Shown in pieces: positions 2,643 through 18,954 of a stretch of DNA of 18,954 nucleotides. Below the pieces are notes generated by a model. It saw only the letters and a program-made list of their open reading frames with translations. It made no database searches and was not told the origin of the DNA. Numbering within the stretch: position 1 is the stretch's first letter; each line of letters opens with the position of its first letter. The DNA comes from a virus. The translations under genes were made by a program, and so were the position numbers. The stretch lies in the IMG/VR virus record IMGVR_UViG_3300045988_028099. One strand, written 5' to 3'.

Positions 2643-2960
2643 TTGGCTAGAACTAAAACCGACATTTTCCGTACAAGAGTATATGCCGTGCTGAAGGGTA
2701 TGGAATTGGTTGACGGCGATTTTTTGGAAGCGGAGCATGTTATCGACGGGCGTTTGAAGGATGCTCGTGCGTATTCGATTCGTGCGAAGAAACTGTTTCC
2801 TAATTTCATTCCACGTTCTATCAATATTTTTTCGCAAAAAGTAGCCATGAATGAGGAAACTTTTTACAAGTATGCGACTTTTGAGGAACCGCAAGAATGG
2901 AACCCCGAAGAGCATACAAACAAACGACACGCCGACATTGAAAATAATGACGGTATGTGA
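2643..2960 (+). CDS. Tentative phi29 p6-like double-stranded DNA-binding protein (105 aa)
   Basis: TTG start 7 nt after GGGAGG. The size, the position directly upstream of the SSB gene and the acidic C-terminal tail parallel phi29 gene 6. There is loose by-eye similarity (MELVDGDF..., ...RAKKLF...). This call is from memory only. Confidence 0.35.
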   Translation: MARTKTDIFRTRVYAVLKGMELVDGDFLEAEHVIDGRLKDARAYSIRAKKLFPNFIPRSINIFSQKVAMNEETFYKYATFEEPQEWNPEEHTNKRHADIENNDGM

Positions 2961-2969
2961 TATAAAAGA

Positions 2970-2989
2970 TTTTAGGCATAAGCCTAAAA
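2970..2989 (+). other. 8-bp stem-loop (ttttaggc-ataa-gcctaaaa) in the intergenic region
   Basis: Seen directly. It has no downstream T-tract on the + strand, so its terminator function is uncertain. Confidence 0.3.
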
Positions 2990-3025
2990 ACAAAATAACA
3001 ACAATATATAAGGGAAGGTAATATC

Positions 3026-3545: not shown

Positions 3546-4505
3546 ATGTCTCGTAAGCAAAAACATGTCAAGGCACGTCAGGCCGCGCAAGCACGCGCCG
3601 CCCGTAATATTAAACAGCTCGGCACCTATTCCCACTCGAATCTCGCCAAAACCGCAGACCAACAGTTAGTCAACATCGCGAAAACCTTGAGTAAGGAGTG
3701 GGAGCGGCAGAAACGACAGGCCATTGCGGAAGCGAAAGCAACCCCTTACCATGCCGTCGCCGTGGAGAAGCCGACGAAAAAAGACGTCATGTTCGCTAGC
3801 CGCACGCCAATAAGCGACGCGCAGATTGAAGCGGAACCGGTGGCGAAACGGCGCAAACTCTTGCGGCAGCAGCAGCGGAAAATCAATGCGGCACGACGTA
3901 AGATTAACGAATGGAACAAGTCACAGTCCATGCCACAACGAAGCGTGTATGATCAGCGCGTGTCGGAACTTGAAGGCACTACCGGTGAGGGTTTTGGGCG
4001 CACTCAGATCATCCCGTCGAAACTCACCGATTTTCTGCAAATGGCTAATGTCCTCAGTGATGAAGCTTTTGTACGAAGTCAATTGGAGAGCGGACGTCGT
4101 AACGAACTGCGTGAACAGATGCATGATGTGGCAGAAATATTGGGGCTACGTACGGAACAGAAACACAAGACGCCTAAAAAGCGGAAGATGGATACTCGCC
4201 CCGAACTGTATGACGATCATAATTGGCCGTCGTACATGTCGCGCGGGCGGTACGAAATTTTCGAAAAAATCTTAGGTACCACGCTCGGCTCGAAACGGTT
4301 GAAACGGTTCCGTCAACTGTCAGCCGCACAAAAGCGCGCGTTTATTGAACAGACCGACGCCCCCCGTGTAGTGTTCGATTGGACGGTGTATGACCCAGTC
4401 CGACACGGTTTCGCGTCAGTGTTCCGAGACAACAGTGAGGGTTATCAGCGATCACGGCGGCAGTTCGACCGGTGGATGACGGAAGCGGGTGCACTGGAAA
4501 AGTAG
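3546..4505 (+). CDS. Putative terminal protein (319 aa, very basic)
   Basis: It lies immediately upstream of the protein-primed DNA polymerase, as in phi29 and Cp-1. It has a K/R-rich N-terminus, and the genome has ITRs. I cannot see clear sequence similarity to phi29 p3. Confidence 0.6.
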   Translation: MSRKQKHVKARQAAQARAARNIKQLGTYSHSNLAKTADQQLVNIAKTLSKEWERQKRQAIAEAKATPYHAVAVEKPTKKDVMFASRTPISDAQIEAEPVAKRRKLLRQQQRKINAARRKINEWNKSQSMPQRSVYDQRVSELEGTTGEGFGRTQIIPSKLTDFLQMANVLSDEAFVRSQLESGRRNELREQMHDVAEILGLRTEQKHKTPKKRKMDTRPELYDDHNWPSYMSRGRYEIFEKILGTTLGSKRLKRFRQLSAAQKRAFIEQTDAPRVVFDWTVYDPVRHGFASVFRDNSEGYQRSRRQFDRWMTEAGALEK

Positions 4506-4533: not shown

Positions 4534-5985
4534 ATGACAGTGCATGGCGATAGAGTTGGATTATGGTGCGCGGATAATGTCGTGCGATGTACGGACGGCA
4601 CCGTGCTACGTGACGTCATCCAACCCAATCGCCTTTTGGCGTCCATCATGTCAGGCGGCAAACTCACCGTCTACATGACCAACCCCGAACTGCTTGACCC
4701 GTTTATCGCGCACGTCGTACATTCACTCCCCCATAACGAACACAACGCTAACTTGAGCTGGGACGCTATCATCTCGAAAAAGGGGAAGTTTTTCAGTTTC
4801 ACGGTACGTATCGACCGCGAGAACTCGGCTCGTTTTTTCGACATATCGAATCTTTTGCGCGAAAACTGCCATCTCACTATGACCGACACGCAATTGCTCA
4901 ATATTTTGCGTGAGTACGATCAGTACGGCTTGTGCAAGATCACGGCGGGCGGTGCGAGTATGGAAGCGTTCGCCGCGGGAGAGTGGAAATGGTATTACGA
5001 CAAATTCCCCCAGCTCGAATCGGATACGAAAAAATCATTGCATGATGCTTACATCGGCGGATTCATGCTAGCCAAAGAGGGGGTGTACGATAAGGCTATC
5101 GACGTTGATTGCAATTCCATGTATCCGTCCATACTGCGTGATGAGTGGCTTCCATGGGGAGAACCTGAACCATATGAAGGCAAATATGTAGAAGACGGCG
5201 ACATGCCATTGCATTGTGATGAACTCACGTTTCGTGCGGAACTCAAACCGGACGGATACCCCTTTCTGTTGGATAATCGAAGCGTGTATAGCCTGAACCG
5301 TCTCACCTCAACCCGTGGATATGTCACGCGCGTGCTTACCGACGTCGATCAAGAACTGCTCCGCGAAAACTATGACGTGAGCATATATCGGCACGTGCGA
5401 GGGTGGAAATTCAGGCGCTCCAAGGGCTTTTTTCGTTCGTTCGTCGACGAATGGGGGGACTTGAAACAGCGGGCGACGGGCGAGAAAAGGCAGATGGCGA
5501 AACTGATCATGAACGCTCTCGTGGGCAAAATGGCGAGTCTGCCAAAAGGCTCCGTCATGCTCCCCGCCTCACAAGATGGTGTCACGTTGGACTGGACTAT
5601 CGGACAGCGCGAGGAGTCGAATTTGAAAACCGATTTTCTCCCCGTGCCCGTATGGGTCAACGCCTACGCTCGTCGCAAGCTTATGACCGTCTGCCATGCG
5701 AACGCCGACCGGCTCCTGTATGCGAACACGGACGGATGCATATTGTCCGGCTGGGAGCCGGTACGATCATGCGAGATTCACCCGACCGAGCTAGGTAAGT
5801 GGAAGATCGCCGCACGATACGACAAGCTTACGATTTTAGGAATGAACCGCTATCAGGGCTGGAGGGATGACGGTGAGGTTGATATCTGTATGGCCGGAAG
5901 CCAATTTACGCAACCGATATCGTATGAGCAATTCCGACATGGCGTACAAGTGTTGGATGATTGTGGAACAATGATTATGCTATAA
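4534..5985 (+). CDS. Family-B protein-primed DNA polymerase (483 aa)
   Basis: Motif A DCNSMYPS (D192), motif B KLIMNALVGK (K323) and motif C YANTDG (396-401) are present. Long blocks align by eye with phi29 DNAP (LPWGEPEPYEGKYVEDGDMPLH versus LPYGEPIVFEGKYVWDEDYPLH; ITAGGASMEAF versus MTAGSDSLKGF). Confidence 0.95.
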   Translation: MTVHGDRVGLWCADNVVRCTDGTVLRDVIQPNRLLASIMSGGKLTVYMTNPELLDPFIAHVVHSLPHNEHNANLSWDAIISKKGKFFSFTVRIDRENSARFFDISNLLRENCHLTMTDTQLLNILREYDQYGLCKITAGGASMEAFAAGEWKWYYDKFPQLESDTKKSLHDAYIGGFMLAKEGVYDKAIDVDCNSMYPSILRDEWLPWGEPEPYEGKYVEDGDMPLHCDELTFRAELKPDGYPFLLDNRSVYSLNRLTSTRGYVTRVLTDVDQELLRENYDVSIYRHVRGWKFRRSKGFFRSFVDEWGDLKQRATGEKRQMAKLIMNALVGKMASLPKGSVMLPASQDGVTLDWTIGQREESNLKTDFLPVPVWVNAYARRKLMTVCHANADRLLYANTDGCILSGWEPVRSCEIHPTELGKWKIAARYDKLTILGMNRYQGWRDDGEVDICMAGSQFTQPISYEQFRHGVQVLDDCGTMIML

Positions 5986-5986
5986 T
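5978..5986 (+). promoter_or_regulatory. Extended -10 promoter TGcTATAAT overlapping the polymerase stop codon
   Basis: atgctataat at 5977-5986. There is no -35, which is the same architecture as the other TGnTATAAT boxes. Confidence 0.5.
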
Positions 5987-5992
5987 ATGCTC

Positions 5993-6161
5993 TGTCTTTC
6001 GAGCGTTGACTTTCGACTGGGATAGACATAGGTTGGACTGCCACGGCTGAGAATGCCGCCAACCATGATTTTGCTACTATGGTGGTAGTGCCCTACGATT
6101 ATCACATTTGCGCTCACATAAGACGATTCAGACCCTCCGTGATTGGAGGGTCATTTTATTT
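5993..6161 (+). ncRNA. Candidate structured non-coding RNA of about 170 nt (possible pRNA analogue); hypothetical
   Basis: The interval is ORF-free and bounded by the 5978 promoter and the 6131 terminator. Visible helices are 5994-5998/6120-6124, 6001-6005/6111-6115, 6031-6036/6059-6064 stacked on 6044-6047/6055-6058, and 6074-6079/6083-6088. Confidence 0.35.
6131..6161 (+). terminator. Intrinsic terminator
   Basis: gaccctcc-gtgatt-ggagggtc (8-bp GC-rich stem) followed by attttattt. Confidence 0.75.
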
Positions 6162-6172
6162 CCCCTGTCGCA

Positions 6173-6181
6173 TGATATAAT
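6173..6181 (+). promoter_or_regulatory. Extended -10 promoter TGaTATAAT, likely the late (structural gene) promoter
   Basis: catgatataat lies about 36 nt upstream of the scaffold ATG and downstream of the 6131 terminator. Confidence 0.55.
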
Positions 6182-6216
6182 TTTGGTGGAAACATTGTCG
6201 ATAGATAGGAGCTTGC

Positions 6217-6492
6217 ATGGCAGACCCAAACAATGAGAGCGACGAAAACACCACTCCGCCGCCAACCGAGGAAGAGAAGCAGACCGAAACCGTCGATGAC
6301 GAAATCAAGCCAAAAGAGCCTGAACCGGAACCCGATCAGCCGGACGTGAGCGCCCGACTTGATAGCATTGAAAAGGAATTGGCCGCATTGAAGGCCATGA
6401 TGGACACGCTCGGCTACACTGACCCCATACCGTCCAATAATGACGATGACGGTGGTGAAATGCAAGAGTCCATCGAAGATCTGTTCGACTAA
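6217..6492 (+). CDS. Scaffolding protein, phi29 gp7-like (91 aa, acidic, coiled-coil)
   Basis: It lies directly upstream of the capsid gene. It has an E/D/P-rich N-terminal part and a helical middle. The C-terminal SIEDLFD resembles the gp7 C-terminus TIEDLEAK. SD aggag. Confidence 0.7.
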   Translation: MADPNNESDENTTPPPTEEEKQTETVDDEIKPKEPEPEPDQPDVSARLDSIEKELAALKAMMDTLGYTDPIPSNNDDDGGEMQESIEDLFD

Positions 6493-6512: not shown

Positions 6513-8237
6513 ATGTCTAATATTCGACCCCTCGCGGGTAAGGGTGACGTTGAAATCTTCAACGCCGTCCGCAACGCCACCAGCCCACAGTTCCAGACTC
6601 GAATCCCGTCTGCGACACAGGGTAATATCCGTAATGCGGTGGATACTATGCGCAATTTCCCGTACCTTCGCGATGAATTTACGGGGGTATTGATTCAGCG
6701 ACTTATCGGCCTCTACGTTCAGCACGCGGACTGGGACGACCCGCTCAAGCTGATCGGCTCCCCCCGCGCTCTGAAGCGTTACGGCTCCACTTATGAACAG
6801 GCTGCAGTCGGCCTAGTCAAGGCACGTACCCGCAATTTTAATAAGGAGTACTTGGGCGATGATGTGTACGGGCGTTATTCACTTCCGACCGCAAGCGTAT
6901 TCCACCCGCTGACTTTCGATCATTATTACCCCGTCACCATTCCAGAAGACGCGCTTCTGACTGCATTCGACGGTGAAAGCGGCATGTCGGATTACATTGC
7001 GGAGATCATGAACGCTCCGATTTTGTCTGACCGCAATGATATGTATCTCATGAAGACGCAGACGTTCGCAGAATATGCGCGCAAGGGCGGTTTCTACCGT
7101 GTACACACCCCCGACGTTGGCGCCGCCAATTCGACCGAAGCGGACGCAAAGGGGTTGCTGCGCCTTATCCAGCAGATGGCGAACGAACTGAAGGCGTCGC
7201 CAATGTCGGCCATGCCCCGCTATAATGCTATGAGCTGGGTTACTCCATGGCGTGATTCGGAGGCTATTTTGTTCGCCACGCCGCAGGTGATCGCCGCACT
7301 CAACGTCGAAGCATTGGCCGCGGCCTTTAACATTGACAAGGTTAATGTTCCGTACCGTATCATTCCGATTCCTGAGGATATGTTCGGCATCGGCGGCGCG
7401 GCTGGTAAGGTGCAGGCCGTGCTGACCACGGAAGACTTCTTCTTCTGCTGGGATGAAATGCTCGAAACGACGAACTCCCCCGTGAACCCGATTGACGGAA
7501 CACGCAACATCTTCTACAAGCACCGTGGCTCCATCACCCCTAACCCTTTCGCTAACGCTGTCCTGTTTTGGACGGGCGAAGGCTCCAGCGAGTCCGTAAC
7601 CCTGCCGGATACGCTCACCACTTCCACTCCGGAATTTACCTTGCGCGTAATGAAGTACGGTCAGCCTTCCATCACTCCCGAAAACGTGTCGCGTGGCGAC
7701 TTGGTGCAGGTGGAGTCTGAAATTTCGAGCGCAAATAAGGCTGAGGCGTCGTTCCAGCCGGTCGGCATCGAATACAAGGTTGAGGGCGCCACCTCGCAGT
7801 TCACTTCGATTGACAACGACGGAATTTTGCGCTGTGGTTTGGATGAAACAGCCGAAGTGCTGAAAGTCACCGCTCAGGCCACCTATATTGACCCAGCTCA
7901 CCCTGAAATCGACCAGACGGTTTCCGCAGCACTGTCCGTACCGGTGGTTGGCACATGGCTCGGCGGCTTGAAAGCGGGCCTCATCGAATCTATCGAAATC
8001 CAAGGCCCAGAAAAGGTTATCCTCCATAAAGCCACTTCATACAAGGCCATTGTCCACAAAATTGACGGCAACACAGTAGAAGTAACCAATCTCGCGCTGT
8101 GGTCGGTCGATGCGAACGCGAGCATCACCCCGAACGGCGTACTGACCGGCACAACAGGGGGAGGCAACATCGCCACTATTACCGCGAAGTTCGCGGGGGT
8201 CACCGGAACGTTGCGAGTCAGTGTCAACACTCAATGA
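6513..8237 (+). CDS. Major capsid protein, phi29 gp8-like, with C-terminal Ig-like (Big_2-type) domains (574 aa)
   Basis: N-terminal blocks align by eye with gp8 ([23 protein letters not shown] versus [37 protein letters not shown] versus LDVDVLAKAFNMNR). The C-terminal roughly 170 aa (nt about 7700-8234) has a Big_2-like pattern ([34 protein letters not shown]). Confidence 0.92.
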   Translation: [574 protein letters not shown]

Positions 8238-8305: not shown

Positions 8306-10540
8306 ATGAGTGCCAACGATCTGTCCATCAATTTCAGTTACGCGAAATGGACGCCAAACACACGATTTAAGCTCTGCAACGTGCCATGGGATATGGGATA
8401 TAGAGATATCGTCAAATGGGATAGACAGGCTCAAAAAGAGTATTTTAACCAGCTGGACGGTATCGAGTTCACGAATTGCACCATGGCAAAATACGGGCTG
8501 CCGGTACGCTTGCCGGTGCCTTTTGCGCAAGCGTGCCAATATAATTATTTAATCGCGACGAACGACTACGACTTCGACACACCACGTAGTTGGTATTATT
8601 TCGTCCAGACATGCGACTACGTGAACGCCAACACCACACAACTCAACATCCAATTGGACGTGTGGCAGAGTTTCCAACACAATATCCAGCTCGGCAACGC
8701 CTACGTAGAAAGGGGGCACGTGGGCGTTGCCAACGAAAACGCGTGGAAAGACTGGGGCAAAACCTATCTCGACCTACCCGAAGGACTCGACACAGGAAAA
8801 TGCACCGTACTCACGAATGAGTCATGGCACCCATTGATGGGGGCTAAATCAAATTCGGAGTACTCGTATGGAATTATCATCGCCACCACCGTAAAGCTGG
8901 AAGCCGACGCCGGAACCAAAGACAACCCTACTATTCAGAGCGCTACCGGAAGCACGTTCGAAAACCAGATGAACGGAACGGAACTCTACTATCTCGACAA
9001 TACGTCCGACATTTTCAGGTTTTTCGGAGCGGGCTCGACGAAACCGTGGGCGACACAGGGGATTTGCGGGATTTACATGGTGCCGACCATCCCAACGAAA
9101 ATGCTTGAAAATCATGCCGCCAAAAACCCGAAACTATTCGGGCAGGATGTGCAATGGACGGGGTCATGCTGGCTGCTTACAGGTAATGTCGCAAATTCTT
9201 CCAGCAGATACGATGATATTATTAACATTAAAAATTTTCGCAACGCTTTTAATCTACCGGAACGCTATAAGTATCTCAAGAAATTCTTAACTGCCCCCTA
9301 TGCGTATATTGAATGCTCGTGTTTGAACGGCACCGTGATTACATATGAACCGGAGCAGATTCCGAGCGCTGATCTGATCATCCGCGAGGCATGGAATTAT
9401 GCGCCCCCGTCTCCCCGCCTGAACTTTTACGCAAGGGGTTATCATGCGGGCAGTATTGGCGAACGTCAACCATTACCGAACGGGCTCGGTTTGCCTATCG
9501 ATACGGGCGACATGCTCAACGCGTCCTTTGGGATCACGAATTTCCCAACCTTTATGGCCGTGAATAACGGTTCGGCGTTGGCATTGGCCAACAGTGCGTA
9601 CACTAGGCAATACGCCCAGCAATCCGCCGATTGGGGGTATCAGAAAACCCAAATGGGTATCAACAATGCGTACGCTCAAGCCCAGCTCGGCACCCAATAC
9701 GCAAGTGCGCAAAACAGGCTCGGCACGTCGAACCGGAACGCTATGAACGCGATCAGCAACCAGAGTGCGCAAATGGGCACCGATTTGACGCTGAAGAATC
9801 TCGGATTCAACAATCAAATGGCGCAATTAAATACGATTGGGTCGGGTGTGGCGAACGCGGTCGGCTCGGCCGTCACCGGGAATGTTGGCGGAGTGGCCGG
9901 TGCTATAGCAGGAACCGCAATAGGCGCATGGACAAACCAACAAACCTACAATAACAACGTGTCAACCGCAAACCAGCAACTTGCGAACACACAAACCACA
10001 AACAACGCCAGCACCTCTCAAGCCAACGCTTTTTCGCTCGCGCAAACCAACCTCAGCAACCAGCAGACCATGCAGCTAGCCGATATGAACAGACAGCTGG
10101 CGCAAGCGACGGCGCAAGGCGATTACGAAAACACGATCGCCGGCATCAACGCCCAAGTACAACAGACCCAGACCGTACCCCCTACCACATCAGGCGCGTT
10201 AGGTGGAGACGCTTTCAACCTAGCCAACGGCCTGATTGGTGTAATGGTACGCTTCCGACAGATACCACCCGCAGCCATGCAAGCTATCGGCGAGGTGTGG
10301 TTAAGGTATGGATACTATGTGCAAAGGTTTATGCGCTTGCCGGAAAATCTTATGGCAATGTCCAATTTTACTTACTGGAAACTGCATGAACTGTATGTAC
10401 GCAGCTCGACATGCCCCGAAGAATACCGTCTGACCGTCAAGGGCATTTTCGAATCCGGCGTGACCGTATGGACTGACCCCGATAAGATCGGTGTGACCGA
10501 TTATGCGGACAATGCGCCGCTAGCTGGTATCGCATATTAA
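8306..10540 (+). CDS. Tail knob / distal tail tube protein, phi29 gp9-like (744 aa)
   Basis: It is collinear by eye with gp9: N-terminus (NVPWDMGYRDIVKW versus DVPFSNDYKNTRWF), YVERGHV versus IVREHV, a central Gly/Ala hydrophobic loop, and the C-terminus (WLRYGYYVQR...GIFESGVTVWTDPDKIG versus FHKYGYKINR...IFDNGITLWHTDNIG). Confidence 0.88.
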   Translation: MSANDLSINFSYAKWTPNTRFKLCNVPWDMGYRDIVKWDRQAQKEYFNQLDGIEFTNCTMAKYGLPVRLPVPFAQACQYNYLIATNDYDFDTPRSWYYFVQTCDYVNANTTQLNIQLDVWQSFQHNIQLGNAYVERGHVGVANENAWKDWGKTYLDLPEGLDTGKCTVLTNESWHPLMGAKSNSEYSYGIIIATTVKLEADAGTKDNPTIQSATGSTFENQMNGTELYYLDNTSDIFRFFGAGSTKPWATQGICGIYMVPTIPTKMLENHAAKNPKLFGQDVQWTGSCWLLTGNVANSSSRYDDIINIKNFRNAFNLPERYKYLKKFLTAPYAYIECSCLNGTVITYEPEQIPSADLIIREAWNYAPPSPRLNFYARGYHAGSIGERQPLPNGLGLPIDTGDMLNASFGITNFPTFMAVNNGSALALANSAYTRQYAQQSADWGYQKTQMGINNAYAQAQLGTQYASAQNRLGTSNRNAMNAISNQSAQMGTDLTLKNLGFNNQMAQLNTIGSGVANAVGSAVTGNVGGVAGAIAGTAIGAWTNQQTYNNNVSTANQQLANTQTTNNASTSQANAFSLAQTNLSNQQTMQLADMNRQLAQATAQGDYENTIAGINAQVQQTQTVPPTTSGALGGDAFNLANGLIGVMVRFRQIPPAAMQAIGEVWLRYGYYVQRFMRLPENLMAMSNFTYWKLHELYVRSSTCPEEYRLTVKGIFESGVTVWTDPDKIGVTDYADNAPLAGIAY

Positions 10541-10591: not shown

Positions 10592-11536
10592 GTGATTGTG
10601 GGTAAACGCAATAACGCACGCAAGGCGTCCCATTGGGATAATCAGAGCGTACTTGGTTCGATGTGGGGCAATTTAAATCTGCCCGAAATGAGGCAGTCAT
10701 TGCGCATTAATCAGTACATGAAATTGATTGAAATGTTGGCGGTATCACGTTTCAAATGGGTTAATTTGCCTCCGTACATCGATGAAAGATATTTGGAACT
10801 GACCCTTTTTGAGAACGGCCTAGCCCTCTTTTTCCCGGATAAAAGGCCGGGCGTCAACCGTTTTATGATCACTTCCGGCAATATCAGCGGTGTGAACAAT
10901 TATAATAACCCAACCAGTTTCCAGCCAGTGGCAACCAATTATTCACACCCGCAGATCGGGTCGAAGGAATGCGTGCCCATTTGGGATAATCAGCTTAGGT
11001 GCACAATGATTGATGTCATGTGGAATTACGCCACGCGACTAGCCATTGCAGATCGAGCATTGGACGTGAATCTCGATAACATTTCGGTACCACTGATCAT
11101 TGCCACGTCCGAAACCAACAAACTCACCGCCCAAAACCTCATGAAAGCACGCGAAGACGGCGACCCGTACATTTACACGTATGACAGCGCGGATATTACC
11201 GGAATGTTCCAGACCTTCCCCAACGTCACCCCGTTTTTGGCGGATAAGATCATCACCACGAAAACGCAAATATGGAACGAACTTGTAAACTACCTAGGCA
11301 TTGACAACAGCACGACGGAAAAGAAGGAGCGGCTGCTTGAATCGGAAGTCACGGCAGGCAACTCGCGTACCAACGTTTTCCGCTTGAGCTATCTCAAAAC
11401 GAGACAGCAGGCGTGCGATACGATTAACCGATTGTGGCCGCAAATGGCCGACTCGGGGTACCCAATCGGCATCGAGTGGAACGACACCACTTCGGGTGGA
11501 CTCTTGGACGTTGACGGAAACAAGGAGGAGGAATAA
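10592..11536 (+). CDS. Portal / head-tail connector (upper collar), phi29 gp10-like (314 aa)
   Basis: [23 protein letters not shown] matches [50 protein letters not shown] matches [27 protein letters not shown]. The start is GTG 10592 as in the track. GTG 10598 (8 nt after agga) is an equally good alternative. Confidence 0.92.
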   Translation: [314 protein letters not shown]

Positions 11537-16052: not shown

Positions 16053-16061
16053 TGATATAAT
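16053..16061 (+). promoter_or_regulatory. Extended -10 promoter TGaTATAAT
   Basis: gtgatataat at 16052-16061, directly after the tail lysin stop codon. Confidence 0.5.
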
Positions 16062-16169: not shown

Positions 16170-17237
16170 ATGACGCTACAGACATTGGCCGAAGACGATT
16201 ACTACGACTTGCACAATCTGCTCACCCGAAACGCGCCATGGAATTTCATTATCGGAGCACGAGGACTAGGCAAAACCTTCGCCGCAAAACGATACGGCAT
16301 CAAGGAATATATTAAACACGGTCACGAGTTCATCTATCTTCGTCGCACGGACGTGGAACAGCACCGGAAGGAAACCTTTTTCAAAGATATCCAAGAGTTT
16401 TTCCCCTCGTATGAGTTTCGCGTGAATGGTGAAAAAGGACAGATTCATAAGACGTCATGGGATGAAAAGGACTGGAGGACATGCTGTTATTTCGTCGCCC
16501 TCTCGCAGGCGGGCGGATTGAAGTCAGTGGCCTATCCAAAAGTGCATCTCATTATTTTTGACGAGATTTTCCCAGACAACCTACGGTTCCTCAGCAACGA
16601 AGTAAATTCGTTCAGCGAGTTCTACAATACGGTAGACAGGTGGCAGGATAGGACAAAAGTTCTATTCCTGAGCAATGCCGTGCAGAAAGCAAATCCATAT
16701 TTTGCGAAATATAGGCTCGACATTGGCGCACAGCAAGCGAACCAGCAGCAATACAAGTTGTATTGCGGTGGTTTCGTATGTCTGGAATTGGCTGATTACG
16801 GCGGATTCAGTGCGAAAGTCGCCAAGTCAAAGTTCGGACGGTTCCTTGAGCAGTACGACGGAGACTATGCGGATTATGCAATACGCAATAAATTCCGTGA
16901 CGAATCGGACACGCTGCTAGCCCCCATCCCTACAGACAGCGAACTGTCCTACATTTTGGACACCACCGACTATGCGCGTTTCGGCATATGGGTTTCCGTG
17001 TCCGAACGCGATGGCCACGTTTCACAATATGTTTCACGGCGCATACCCAAAGACAACACCAGACCCGTATACACGTTAGACCCCAATCATGTAGACGAAA
17101 AAACATGGTACGTCAAAAAATCAGACGACATCATACGACGACTCACCACCGGTTACCGGCTAGGTAAAATAAGATTCGATGATTCACAAGTAAAAGCCGA
17201 TTTTGGCTTGATCATAGGAGAATTACTAGGAAAGTAA
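16170..17237 (+). CDS. DNA encapsidation (packaging) ATPase, phi29 gp16-like (355 aa)
   Basis: NFIIGARGLGKTFAAKRYGIKEYIKHGHEFIYLRR matches NFVIGARGIGKSYAMKVYPINRFIKYGEQFIYVRR (Walker A). Walker B is HLIIFDE. LSNAV is conserved. Confidence 0.93.
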   Translation: MTLQTLAEDDYYDLHNLLTRNAPWNFIIGARGLGKTFAAKRYGIKEYIKHGHEFIYLRRTDVEQHRKETFFKDIQEFFPSYEFRVNGEKGQIHKTSWDEKDWRTCCYFVALSQAGGLKSVAYPKVHLIIFDEIFPDNLRFLSNEVNSFSEFYNTVDRWQDRTKVLFLSNAVQKANPYFAKYRLDIGAQQANQQQYKLYCGGFVCLELADYGGFSAKVAKSKFGRFLEQYDGDYADYAIRNKFRDESDTLLAPIPTDSELSYILDTTDYARFGIWVSVSERDGHVSQYVSRRIPKDNTRPVYTLDPNHVDEKTWYVKKSDDIIRRLTTGYRLGKIRFDDSQVKADFGLIIGELLGK

Positions 17238-17621: not shown

Positions 17622-18299
17622 ATGAATATTCAGGAATGGATGAACAGCGTTGACGGCAAAGTAATAGACATGGACGGCGCATACGGTGGGCAATGCTGGG
17701 ATTTATGGAGTTCCTATGCCCGAAACGTCTACGGCATCCCAGCAGCCGACACCAACACCGTAGACGGATACGCCGCAAGCGTCTACACCGCACGATACGA
17801 CCGCTCACAAGTATTGCAAAACACGTTCAGCCGCGAGGGTGCCGACTACGCACCAACTTACGGTGACGTGGCATTTTGGAACGGCGCGGGCATGAATCAT
17901 GTCGCCATCGTAGTTGAAGACAATGGTAACGGCACTTTGTCCACCATGTCACAGAATCCAAACAAGACCGGATACGTGACGATCAGCAAGAACGGCATTA
18001 TCGGTTACTTCCATCCACGCACGGCAAACACGCCCACACCGACACCGGCACAAGGTAACGTGACCATCATCCCGCGCACGTACAAGGTCAACGTTGACGT
18101 ACTCAACGTACGCTCGGCACCGTCAACCTCAGCACAAGTAGTAGCACAATACCATTACGGACAAACCGTCAATCTCGCCGAAGGCGGCGTGGTCACAGAC
18201 GGATACATTTGGGCACACTACATAGGCGGCTCAGGAGCCACTAGGTACGTAGCACTCGCACCCGCCGACAAATCAGCATGGTACCTCGTATTTGCCTAA
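17622..18299 (+). CDS. Endolysin: CHAP domain, Thr/Pro linker, SH3b-type cell-wall-binding domain (225 aa)
   Basis: ATG 17622 follows aggaagga and lies 1 nt after the holin stop. The track start at 17574 overlaps the holin. Signatures are DGAYGGQCWDLW ... NHVAIV, linker TANTPTPTPAQG, and an SH3b pattern YKVNVDVLNVRSAPSTSAQVV...GYIWAHY. Confidence 0.9.
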   Translation: MNIQEWMNSVDGKVIDMDGAYGGQCWDLWSSYARNVYGIPAADTNTVDGYAASVYTARYDRSQVLQNTFSREGADYAPTYGDVAFWNGAGMNHVAIVVEDNGNGTLSTMSQNPNKTGYVTISKNGIIGYFHPRTANTPTPTPAQGNVTIIPRTYKVNVDVLNVRSAPSTSAQVVAQYHYGQTVNLAEGGVVTDGYIWAHYIGGSGATRYVALAPADKSAWYLVFA

Positions 18300-18313
18300 C
18301 ATGACAGCATAAA

Positions 18314-18346
18314 ATAAGCCCCTAGGTTACTTACCTAGGGGCTTAT
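18314..18346. terminator. Bidirectional terminator hairpin between the convergent endolysin and right-terminal genes
   Basis: Perfect 13-bp stem ataagcccctagg / cctaggggcttat with a 7-nt loop. On the minus strand it is followed by tttat. Confidence 0.7.
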
Positions 18347-18355
18347 CCTTACCTA

Positions 18356-18556
18356 TCACGCCTCCTCGAACGCTTCAATAAAATCATCATTCGGAAACGA
18401 ATCACAATCGTTATAATCCTCGATAGTCATACCATTAACCACCGCCACATGATGCAGATTCTCAACAATTGCGTCGATATCAAAATCGGAGAGCTGCTGA
18501 CCACTGTTCAGAATATAATCCTCGGCGTAGTCCTTGATGATGCTATTGTTAATCAT
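18356..18556 (-). CDS. Small, very acidic protein (66 aa); the only leftward gene, expressed from the right ITR
   Basis: The ATG is preceded by the ITR copy of the SD cassette. I counted 16 D/E, 1 K and 0 R. A hairpin follows the gene. Confidence 0.75.
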   Translation of the reverse strand: MINNSIIKDYAEDYILNSGQQLSDFDIDAIVENLHHVAVVNGMTIEDYNDCDSFPNDDFIEAFEEA

Positions 18557-18590
18557 TTTATTTTTTCCTTTCCTTGAAGTTGATAGTTAT

Positions 18591-18599
18591 ATAATAACA
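18591..18599 (-). promoter_or_regulatory. Candidate extended -10 promoter for the right terminal gene (mirror of 356-364)
   Basis: The reverse complement of ataataaca is TGTTATTAT. It is part of the ITR. Confidence 0.4.
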
Positions 18600-18812
18600 C
18601 AAACAAACAGACGACACGCCCGAAAACAAAACGAAGCAAAAAAATAAAAGACAACTACCAACCGGTCGGTAAGCTACGGTTACGTAACCGTAACTTAGCG
18701 ATAATTAGACAACATGAGTTAACCCAGTTAATCAATGACTATATGAATTGTTGCACATACAACCATTGACACAGTGTCAATAAAAAAAATATGCGACACG
18801 CCGTAAAAAAAT

Positions 18813-18841
18813 TTGACAGGACGGCGTAAAAAAAATATAAT
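18813..18841 (+). promoter_or_regulatory. Outward-facing consensus promoter in the right ITR (mirror copy)
   Basis: TTGACA at 18813-18818, 17-nt spacer ggacggcgtaaaaaaaa, TATAAT at 18836-18841. The predicted start near 18848 runs to the genome end (about 107 nt). Confidence 0.6.
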
Positions 18842-18954
18842 AGAGGAGTAAACACAACAAAGTGACAACGGGGTCACAGAACAAAAAAAAATAATACACA
18901 AATAAAAAAAACCACAAGGGAAAATCTTCACACAAACCCACACCCCTCCCAACA

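Follow-up and report, generated by a model that had tools for sequence, protein, structure and literature searches.

The prohead or packaging RNA (pRNA) has been described as unique to phage phi29 and related Bacillus phages (PMC5066667; PMC11476376, of 2024), and the 12 pRNAs added by a survey in 2025 all belong to phages of Bacillus or Cytobacillus (PMC12670572). In phi29 there is precedent for the formation of an RNA ring, for its binding to the portal and for the docking of the ATPase, and the Bacillus pRNAs have kept their fold at a sequence identity of about 12% (PMC5066667). A case outside Bacillus is an older proposal for Streptococcus phage Cp-1, a phi29-like podovirus with a gp16-type ATPase, whose putative pRNA is missed by covariance models made from Bacillus pRNAs (PMC6266182).

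Here we describe an unannotated unit at positions 5993-6161 of the IMG/VR virus record IMGVR_UViG_3300045988_028099, a complete linear phage genome of 18,954 bp; this whole stretch is called the window below. The presence of genes for a type B polymerase, a phi29-type capsid protein and gp9-like, gp10 and gp16 proteins indicates a phi29-like podovirus of an actinobacterial host, and the host (Bifidobacterium) sets it apart from the phages of the phi29 pRNA group, which infect Bacillus. On comparison of the sequences it is as good as established that the unit encodes a structured, separately transcribed and strongly selected RNA. By analogy with phi29, we consider it probable that the unit is the prohead RNA gene of this actinobacterial phage.

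The RNA unit and its covariation

The unit is framed by transcription signals on the plus strand. Upstream stands promoter P1 (5978-5986), an extended -10 box TGCTATAAT without a clear -35 element, from which transcription is predicted to start at about 5992-5994. Its box overlaps the polymerase gene, whose stop codon (5983-5985) falls within it. Downstream, an intrinsic terminator (6131-6161) consists of the stem GACCCUCC-GUGAUU-GGAGGGUC (6131-6152) followed by AUUUUAUUU, and ranks first among the terminator-like sites of the whole window. Promoter P2 of the late, structural operon follows on the 3' side of this terminator (6173-6181, plus strand, extended -10 box TGATATAAT). An earlier sequence-only reading of the window had pointed out both boxes and the terminator, and all three are indeed present. 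As predicted from the sequence, P1 and the terminator enclose about 168 nt. The motif TGNTATAAT occurs five times in the window (2592, 3467, 5978, 6173 and 16053) against an expectation of 0.71, always on the plus strand and at gene boundaries; to judge from this pattern, the five sites are very probably promoters of the phage, two of which frame the RNA unit. All aligned relatives retain TGnTA(T/C)(A/G)AT at P1, with a TATGAT variant that changes the polymerase stop codon from TAA to TGA, and the ATGATATAAT motif of P2 is nearly invariant among them.

No open reading frame (ORF) of more than 45 codons lies within the unit and none in it has a ribosome-binding site, which agrees with the earlier claim that no ORF there is preceded by a Shine-Dalgarno sequence. 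A protein-coding interpretation was rejected, since the unit offers only such short ORFs and its alignment gaps are not multiples of three. A scan for tRNA and tmRNA found none, and a known Rfam family was rejected as well: none of the 4227 families scanned matched at gathering thresholds, a chance match of mir-223 to the terminator having an E-value of 0.2. In all five GenBank relatives, an unannotated gap of about 230 nt lies between the polymerase gene and the pre-capsid ORF. In the window this gap measures 231 nt and had been called by far the largest of its kind; it is among the two largest, but the claim was overstated, as the interval 1744-1988 is equally long unless the TTG ORF at 1740-1949 is real.

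The predicted non-coding RNA (5993-6161, plus strand, about 168 nt) comprises a core (5993-6125), a 5-nt linker (6126-6130) and a 3' hairpin domain formed by the terminator. The minimum-free-energy fold of the 169-nt unit (-57.2 kcal/mol, z -3.9) agrees with the consensus fold of relatives. The two ends of the core meet in a closing 'A' helix, with outer pairs at 5993-5998/6120-6125 and 6001-6006/6110-6115 and inner pairs at 6008-6009/6102-6103, 6013-6015/6096-6098 and 6019-6021/6091-6093; this helix, whose 5' strand spans 5993-6021, is broken by internal loops and leads to a three-way junction. The first arm starts with the 'C' helix (6027-6029/6065-6067 and 6031-6036/6059-6064), in which the 5' strand CAU.GGUUGG (6027-6036) faces the partner CCAACCAUG. 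It continues through a 7-nt bulge confined to the 5' side (6037-6043, ACUGCCA), the counterpart of the CE or right-hand loop of pRNA, and ends in the 'E' stem-loop, with a 4-bp stem CGGC/GCCG (6044-6047/6055-6058) and the loop UGAGAAU (6048-6054). Five U-rich nucleotides separate it from the second arm, the 'D' hairpin (6072-6077/6085-6090; loop UAUGGUG, 6078-6084). All of the helices listed in the sequence-only reading recur in the minimum-free-energy fold, among them the 10-bp helix with its 7-nt bulge and loop UGAGAAU and the 6-bp hairpin 6074-6079/6083-6088.

The evidence for the RNA weighs on comparison and not on thermodynamics. We assembled 97 homologous loci, with 82 distinct sequences, from GenBank relatives and from IMG/VR contigs that were searched both with a DNA word and with the capsid protein. 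A covariance model built from 26 sequences (R1) recovers the unit at full length in the homologues (96 further loci) except for one copy cut by a contig end, and in the distant relative L078, whose capsid protein is only 57% identical, its match scores 63.5 bits (E 9e-12). Standard pairs fill 98.2% of the pair cells of the R1 alignment, as opposed to 93.0 ± 0.2% after shuffling of columns and 32-48% after sliding the partners by 1-3 columns, and none of 500 shuffles reached any observed pairing measure. Compensatory changes on both sides are seen in 32 of the 52 pairs of this alignment, which was fitted to the model and hence favours pairing; an independent run of MAFFT and RNAalifold finds them in 12 of 41 pairs. 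They occur in every helix, the 5'/3' closing helix included. The 'A' helix (helices 1-5) is 97.5-100% paired, with 11 of 20 pairs changed on both sides, and the 'C' helix (helices 6-7) has 6 compensatory pairs of 9. The 'E' stem (helix 10; 99.7% paired) contributes 3 of 4, the 'D' stem (helix 11; 100% paired) 5 of 6 and the terminator stem (helix 12) 6 of 9. The 'E' loop is nearly invariant and reads UGAGAAU or UGAAAAC throughout the 97 sequences. To distant relatives the RNA is 83.5%, 70.7% and 59% identical in nucleotide sequence, the same level as in the polymerase and capsid genes on either side, whereas the spacer 3' of the terminator falls to 65%. The check for covariation and conservation that had been proposed with the sequence-only reading is thereby answered in the affirmative.

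Nearly all 97 homologues have an unchanged loop GUGAUUG (6139-6145) in the 3' hairpin, above a stem that covaries freely. The loop is kept even in L078 (about 9505-9515, minus strand), where the RNA is 59% identical overall. As the loop of a plain terminator should be unconstrained, this invariance suggests that the 3' domain has a binding site.

The frequent G·U pairs identify the plus strand as the folded one. An RNA from the minus strand was rejected, as its fold is weaker and the G·U pairs would turn into A·C. The same pairs bear on the idea of an element acting as DNA, either an array of protein-binding sites or a structure taken up by the single strand that protein-primed replication displaces. 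Strand-displacement replication does expose single-stranded DNA, and DNA folds tolerate G·T pairs. Nevertheless, promoter and terminator signals frame the unit on the folded strand, the numerous G·U pairs would correspond to A·C on the opposite strand, and a three-way junction with loop-loop covariation is without known counterpart in phi29-type replication, in which the origins lie at the genome ends. We regard a role at the DNA level as exceedingly improbable.

Another explanation is that the unit acts in cis, as the 3' end or as an insulator of the early operon; its fold would then be a stabilising or processing structure joined to a terminator, which would end the polymerase mRNAs and keep early and late transcription apart. 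It might also be a put-like element that acts on RNA polymerase and has no role as a free RNA. Early transcripts must indeed run into the unit and stop at 6131-6161, because there is no terminator between the polymerase gene and the unit, and the conservation of P1 is partly forced by the polymerase C-terminus, since P1 overlaps the coding sequence. The put RNAs of HK022 consist of two simple stem-loops, which act on the transcribing polymerase and permit read-through; like the RNA of the window, they are structured and stand between promoter and terminator at a phage operon boundary. Unlike put, however, the present unit has a strong terminator followed by a promoter of its own, and a three-way junction with a loop-loop pair. 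A terminator needs 30 nt, whereas the additional 133 nt of the unit contain 43 covarying pairs, the three-way junction and a covarying tertiary pair, and antitermination is hard to square with a conserved P2 directly after the terminator. The end-of-operon layout provides no argument against a pRNA, as the phi29 pRNA also ends the early operon. A purely cis-acting element is, in our estimation, quite improbable. A riboswitch or attenuation leader of the late operon was rejected, since the conserved P2 separates the terminator from the first late gene and no riboswitch family matches.

Comparison with the prohead RNAs of Bacillus phages

The known RNAs closest in kind are the pRNAs of phi29 and of B103/M2/Nf, SF5 and GA-1, which are Bacillus phages of the Salasmaviridae. 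When the pRNAs of phi29, B103 and GA-1 are folded in the same way as the RNA of the window, all four display an A helix, a three-way junction, a C helix, an E stem-loop, a D hairpin and a 3' domain. The bulge of the first arm is confined to the 5' side in each of them, with 9 nt in phi29, about 8 nt in B103, 6 nt in GA-1 and 7 nt in the window, and the E stem has 4 bp in all four (3-4 bp in distant actinophage relatives). The E loops are UUGAGU in phi29 and B103, GUAAAA in GA-1 and UGAGAAU in the window, and the D hairpin starts 3-5 nt after the C helix in the window RNA and the Bacillus pRNAs alike. The similarity extends to size (about 168 nt against 174 nt for phi29) and to the two-domain layout, in which a core of about 120-133 nt is joined by a short linker to a 3' hairpin; domain II of phi29 is a 3' hairpin that ends in a U run, matched here by the linker 6126-6130 and the hairpin 6131-6152. 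The annotated pRNA of GA-1 shares with the unit its succession of promoter, RNA, terminator and promoter. The resemblance has its limits: the A helix of the window RNA has larger internal loops than that of phi29, the CCA bulge needed in the phi29 pRNA is without obvious counterpart, and the Bacillus pRNAs have no detectable sequence similarity to the RNA of the window. The putative RNA of Cp-1 comes from a phage with a Firmicutes host and, as far as the literature consulted shows, is predicted from a single sequence (PMC6266182), whereas covariation from more than 80 sequences underlies the present RNA.

The genes around the RNA also follow phi29. Along the direction of early transcription, phi29 has terminal protein (TP), polymerase, four small ORFs (the gene 1 cluster), promoter A1 and pRNA; the window has putative TP, polymerase, P1 and RNA, with no gene-1-type ORFs between polymerase and RNA. 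Both RNA genes thus close the replication operon, behind the polymerase gene, as units with promoter and terminator signals of their own. The RNA gene stands in mid-genome, between the polymerase and scaffold genes, because the replication module shares a strand with the late genes; the phi29 pRNA lies near the left end. A phi29-like location near the ends of the genome was considered for the window and rejected: the promoters in its inverted terminal repeats (ITRs) do face outward, but the run-off transcript is unstructured (z -0.7).

Both protein partners of the phi29 motor are encoded, in keeping with the claim of gp10- and gp16-like proteins in the sequence-only reading. Profile matches identify a gp10-type connector, or portal (10592-11536, plus strand; PF05352 Phage_connector, E 2.4e-39), and a gp16-type packaging ATPase (16170-17237, plus strand; PF05894 Podovirus_Gp16, E 7.9e-46, profile positions 6-319 of 331). 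The pRNA-binding N-terminus of phi29 gp10 is basic, and that of the connector in the window, (M/V)IVGKRNNARKAS, is likewise basic (GKRNNARKAS), which is a soft point of likeness. The ATPase gene is preceded by its own TGATATAAT box at 16053, directly ahead of it, which suggests a separate promoter.

Covariation also connects two loops. At the 3' end of the bulge, GCCA (6040-6043) complements UGGU in the D loop (U6080-U6083), which is UGGC in most relatives; the interlocking AACC of phi29 likewise consists of the last four bases of its bulge and so occupies the same place. The column pair G6040-U6083 is G-C in 66 sequences, G·U in 10 and A-U in 5, is never unpaired and never A·C. At C6041-G6082 all 81 sequences have CG, and at C6042-G6081 77 have CG and 4 UG. 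The five A-U sequences represent four lineages, three of which represent independent double substitutions from G-C to A-U, because their nearest relatives have G-C, while the fourth arose from a G·U background.

Recurrence in distant phages and the case for a packaging role

A capsid-protein search of GenBank phages returned phi29-like phages of Bifidobacterium asteroides, Curtobacterium, Arthrobacter, Microbacterium, Glutamicibacter, Actinomyces and 'Rhizobium'. With two exceptions, the phages examined have a gap of 155-300 nt without annotation directly before the ORF in the scaffold position, and the gaps of distant phages display the same layout of closing helix, three-way junction, bulged C/E arm, D hairpin and strong terminator hairpin. 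This RNA module precedes the scaffold gene in L078, in phages of Curtobacterium, Arthrobacter and Glutamicibacter, in RHph_N3_8 and BadAztec, and in honeybee Bifidobacterium and metagenomic phages. An automated scan found the arm of C helix, 5' bulge and E stem-loop in 21 of 25 distant RNAs, with E loops such as UUGAAU, CUGAAA, GUGAAG, UUGAUU, GUGAUA and UUGGGU. Free covariation is seen in the soil clade, both in the closing helix and in the E stem (GGG/CCC, CCC/GGG, CUC/GAG). An analysis of 17 distant soil-phage RNAs with MAFFT and RNAalifold recovered covariation only for the closing helix and the E stem, the alignment being too poor for the C and D helices. Unfiltered R1 matches in distant genomes are weak (10-20 bits, E 0.01-1.5), and all ten of the long ones (more than 150 nt) fall on the coding strand of the pre-scaffold gap. 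For L078, a query of viral and metagenome contigs with its capsid protein returned the same phage only, and a loose gapped DNA pattern for L078-like RNAs gave 120 chance matches in viral contigs and no true one.

Several of these loci have features of their own. The RNAs of soil actinophages start right after a conserved GCGUGA, which contains the stop codon of the upstream ORF, and have in common a single-stranded linker UCCGAAAUAGAAA that connects the closing helix with the terminator hairpin (L208, about 4040-4052; L212, about 815-826; L345, L347 and others). RHph_N3_8 (L220, 1090-1244) carries an actinophage-type module with the E loop GUGAAAA; a 2024 review calls its Rhizobium host questionable, and the module fits an actinobacterial relationship. 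In the Microbacterium phage PineapplePizza (L218, 662-1077) a gap of just 52 nt precedes the scaffold-position ORF, and an annotated gp06 of 321 nt fills the space of the RNA. Actinomyces phage Av-1 (L219, 472-612) has a 141-nt gap with an annotated promoter, to which no clear fold was assigned. Either these two lineages are without the RNA or the annotation hides it.

The sequences of bulge and D loop vary among clades while their complementarity stays. When assigned by hand, the bases are GCAA/UUGC in Pize, UUGCA/UGCAA in Ayka and CAGCU/AGCUG in Anjali, and further loci provide UGUU/AACA (RHph_N3_8) and ACGC/GCGU (L369). For single RNAs the loop shuffle test yields p of 0.02-0.7, and 0.12 for phi29 itself. 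The BadAztec-type RNAs of gut phages (L207, 12690-12856, minus strand; L221, 570-731, minus strand; L366 and L368, 1236-1401) have a bulge GAAACC, in which AACC is identical to the right-hand loop of phi29, whereas their D region offers only GGU(G) as a partner.

The suggestion in the sequence-only reading of a structured RNA, possibly a pRNA analogue, is supported by the topology, by the covariation of bulge and D loop, by the phi29 gene order and by the recurrence in distant phages. To this comes the presence of gp10 and gp16 genes across hosts, and together these observations are our grounds for favouring a prohead RNA. By the phi29 precedent, copies of the RNA would join as a ring through pairing of the bulge GCCA with the D-loop UGGC/U of neighbouring molecules, and the ring would sit on the empty prohead at its unique portal vertex. 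Contacts with the capsid and with the gp10-type connector, whose basic N-terminus could bind RNA, may be made by the E loop and the junction region, while the protruding closing helices would dock the gp16-type ATPase, which is itself without a portal-binding domain. The assembled motor would then package the terminal-protein-capped genome, and the RNA would depart before tail attachment.

A number of observations weigh against this interpretation. Of the four kissing pairs proposed, A6043-U6080 is disrupted in 7 of 81 sequences (AU in 74), and the sequences would fit intermolecular pairing and an intramolecular pseudoknot alike. The hand-curated complementarity across clades is modestly significant (combined p of about 0.012 in the shuffle test); in several clades the match of bulge and D loop is only 3 bp, and the L078 and BadAztec types are ambiguous. 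Automated extraction of the module misassigns D loops, even in phi29, and therefore cannot test loop complementarity. A scan with the Rfam pRNA model, as proposed with the sequence-only reading, found no match: RF00044 has none in the window at its gathering threshold of 100 bits, nor at E-values up to 10 in 5850-6300, while the phi29 positive control scores 145.4 bits. The same model finds nothing in the genomes of BadAztec1, Pize and Anjali, and since its consensus is essentially the sequence of phi29 itself, such a miss says little on distant relatives. Conversely, R1 does not find the phi29 pRNA. Shared ancestry with the Bacillus pRNAs is not established, and convergence or mere analogy is possible. 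The folding of the locus (z -4.5) is also not unique in the genome, where it ranks 9th among 442 windows of 170 nt.

These points leave room for a structured RNA with some other trans-acting task, such as a regulator or decoy at the early-to-late transition, aimed for example at RNA polymerase, an RNase or a defence factor, whose resemblance to pRNA would be coincidental. Structure, conservation and a separate transcription unit do not say what an RNA binds, a sequence-level link to the Bacillus pRNAs is missing, and the invariant loops UGAGAAU and GUGAUUG would suit other protein-binding sites. Such an RNA would, however, have to match the pRNA layout by chance, including the 5'-only bulge, the covarying loop pair and the 3' domain, and to occupy the syntenic position by chance as well. 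Moreover, the module is found only in genomes with gp10/gp16 motors, in very divergent hosts, a co-occurrence that argues for a function in virion assembly rather than a host-specific one. We consider a different trans-acting role unlikely.

How old a packaging RNA would be is a separate question, on which the balance leans towards an RNA ring as an ancestral general component of the gp16-type motor, kept in actinobacterial phi29-like phages while its sequence diverged beyond recognition. Searches of the accessible literature for pRNA in Bifidobacterium, actinobacteriophages, Curtobacterium, Arthrobacter and Av-1 gave no report of such an RNA, and Rfam 15 has no family for the actinophage RNA. 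If the identification is correct, the unit would be the first member with good support of a large family of actinophage pRNAs that had gone unrecognised, and RNA-dependent DNA packaging would be widespread in small protein-primed podoviruses, including the abundant Bifidobacterium phages of the human gut. It would bear on whether pRNA is an ancient component of the motor or a late invention. More than 100 sequences of the same fold would constitute a deep independent alignment in which to ask whether the essential features of pRNA include the invariant loop of the 3' hairpin, the UGA-type E loop and the pairing of bulge and D loop. They would also provide new self-assembling three-way-junction scaffolds for RNA nanotechnology. 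Finally, annotations would require a correction, as the gap that contains the RNA is unannotated in every GenBank relative examined.

Genome setting and further features

Nearly all genes of the window are on the plus strand, and its ITRs measure 398 bp. Its relatives at the DNA level are Bifidobacterium phage BP1 (81% identity across 75% of the genome), BD811P1-3 and one human-faecal contig. The replication module ends with the protein-primed type B DNA polymerase (4534-5985, plus strand; PF03175 DNA_pol_B_2, phrog_1907), whose counterparts in BP1 and BD811P1-3 are annotated as DNA polymerase. Before it, an unassigned ORF of 319 aa occupies the terminal-protein position and is a putative TP by position only.

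The late genes begin with a small ORF of 91 aa in the scaffold-gene position (6217-6492, plus strand), with the ribosome-binding site AGGAG at 6208-6212. Family searches gave no match of its own for this ORF. Its place ahead of the capsid gene corresponds to that of phi29 gene 7 before gene 8, and its counterpart in phage Ayka is annotated as a scaffolding protein. The phi29-type major capsid protein follows (6513-8237, plus strand; PF25622 Phi29_MCP), and a gp9-like tail knob protein is also encoded in the window.

The strongest folding outliers of the genome, above the RNA locus, lie elsewhere. The region 2848-3017 (z -9.5 on the minus and -4.9 on the plus strand) contains the hairpin TTTTAGGCTTATGCCTAAAA at 2970-2989, and a second outlier at 18233-18402 (minus strand, z -6.1) adjoins the sole minus-strand ORF, 18356-18556. 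Each of the ITRs (1-398 and 18557-18954) has a perfect TTGACA-17-TATAAT promoter that faces the genome end (142->114 on the minus strand and 18813-18841 on the plus strand), with an A-rich run-off transcript of about 110 nt. These promoters might assist the opening of the origins through transcription, or might be a by-product.

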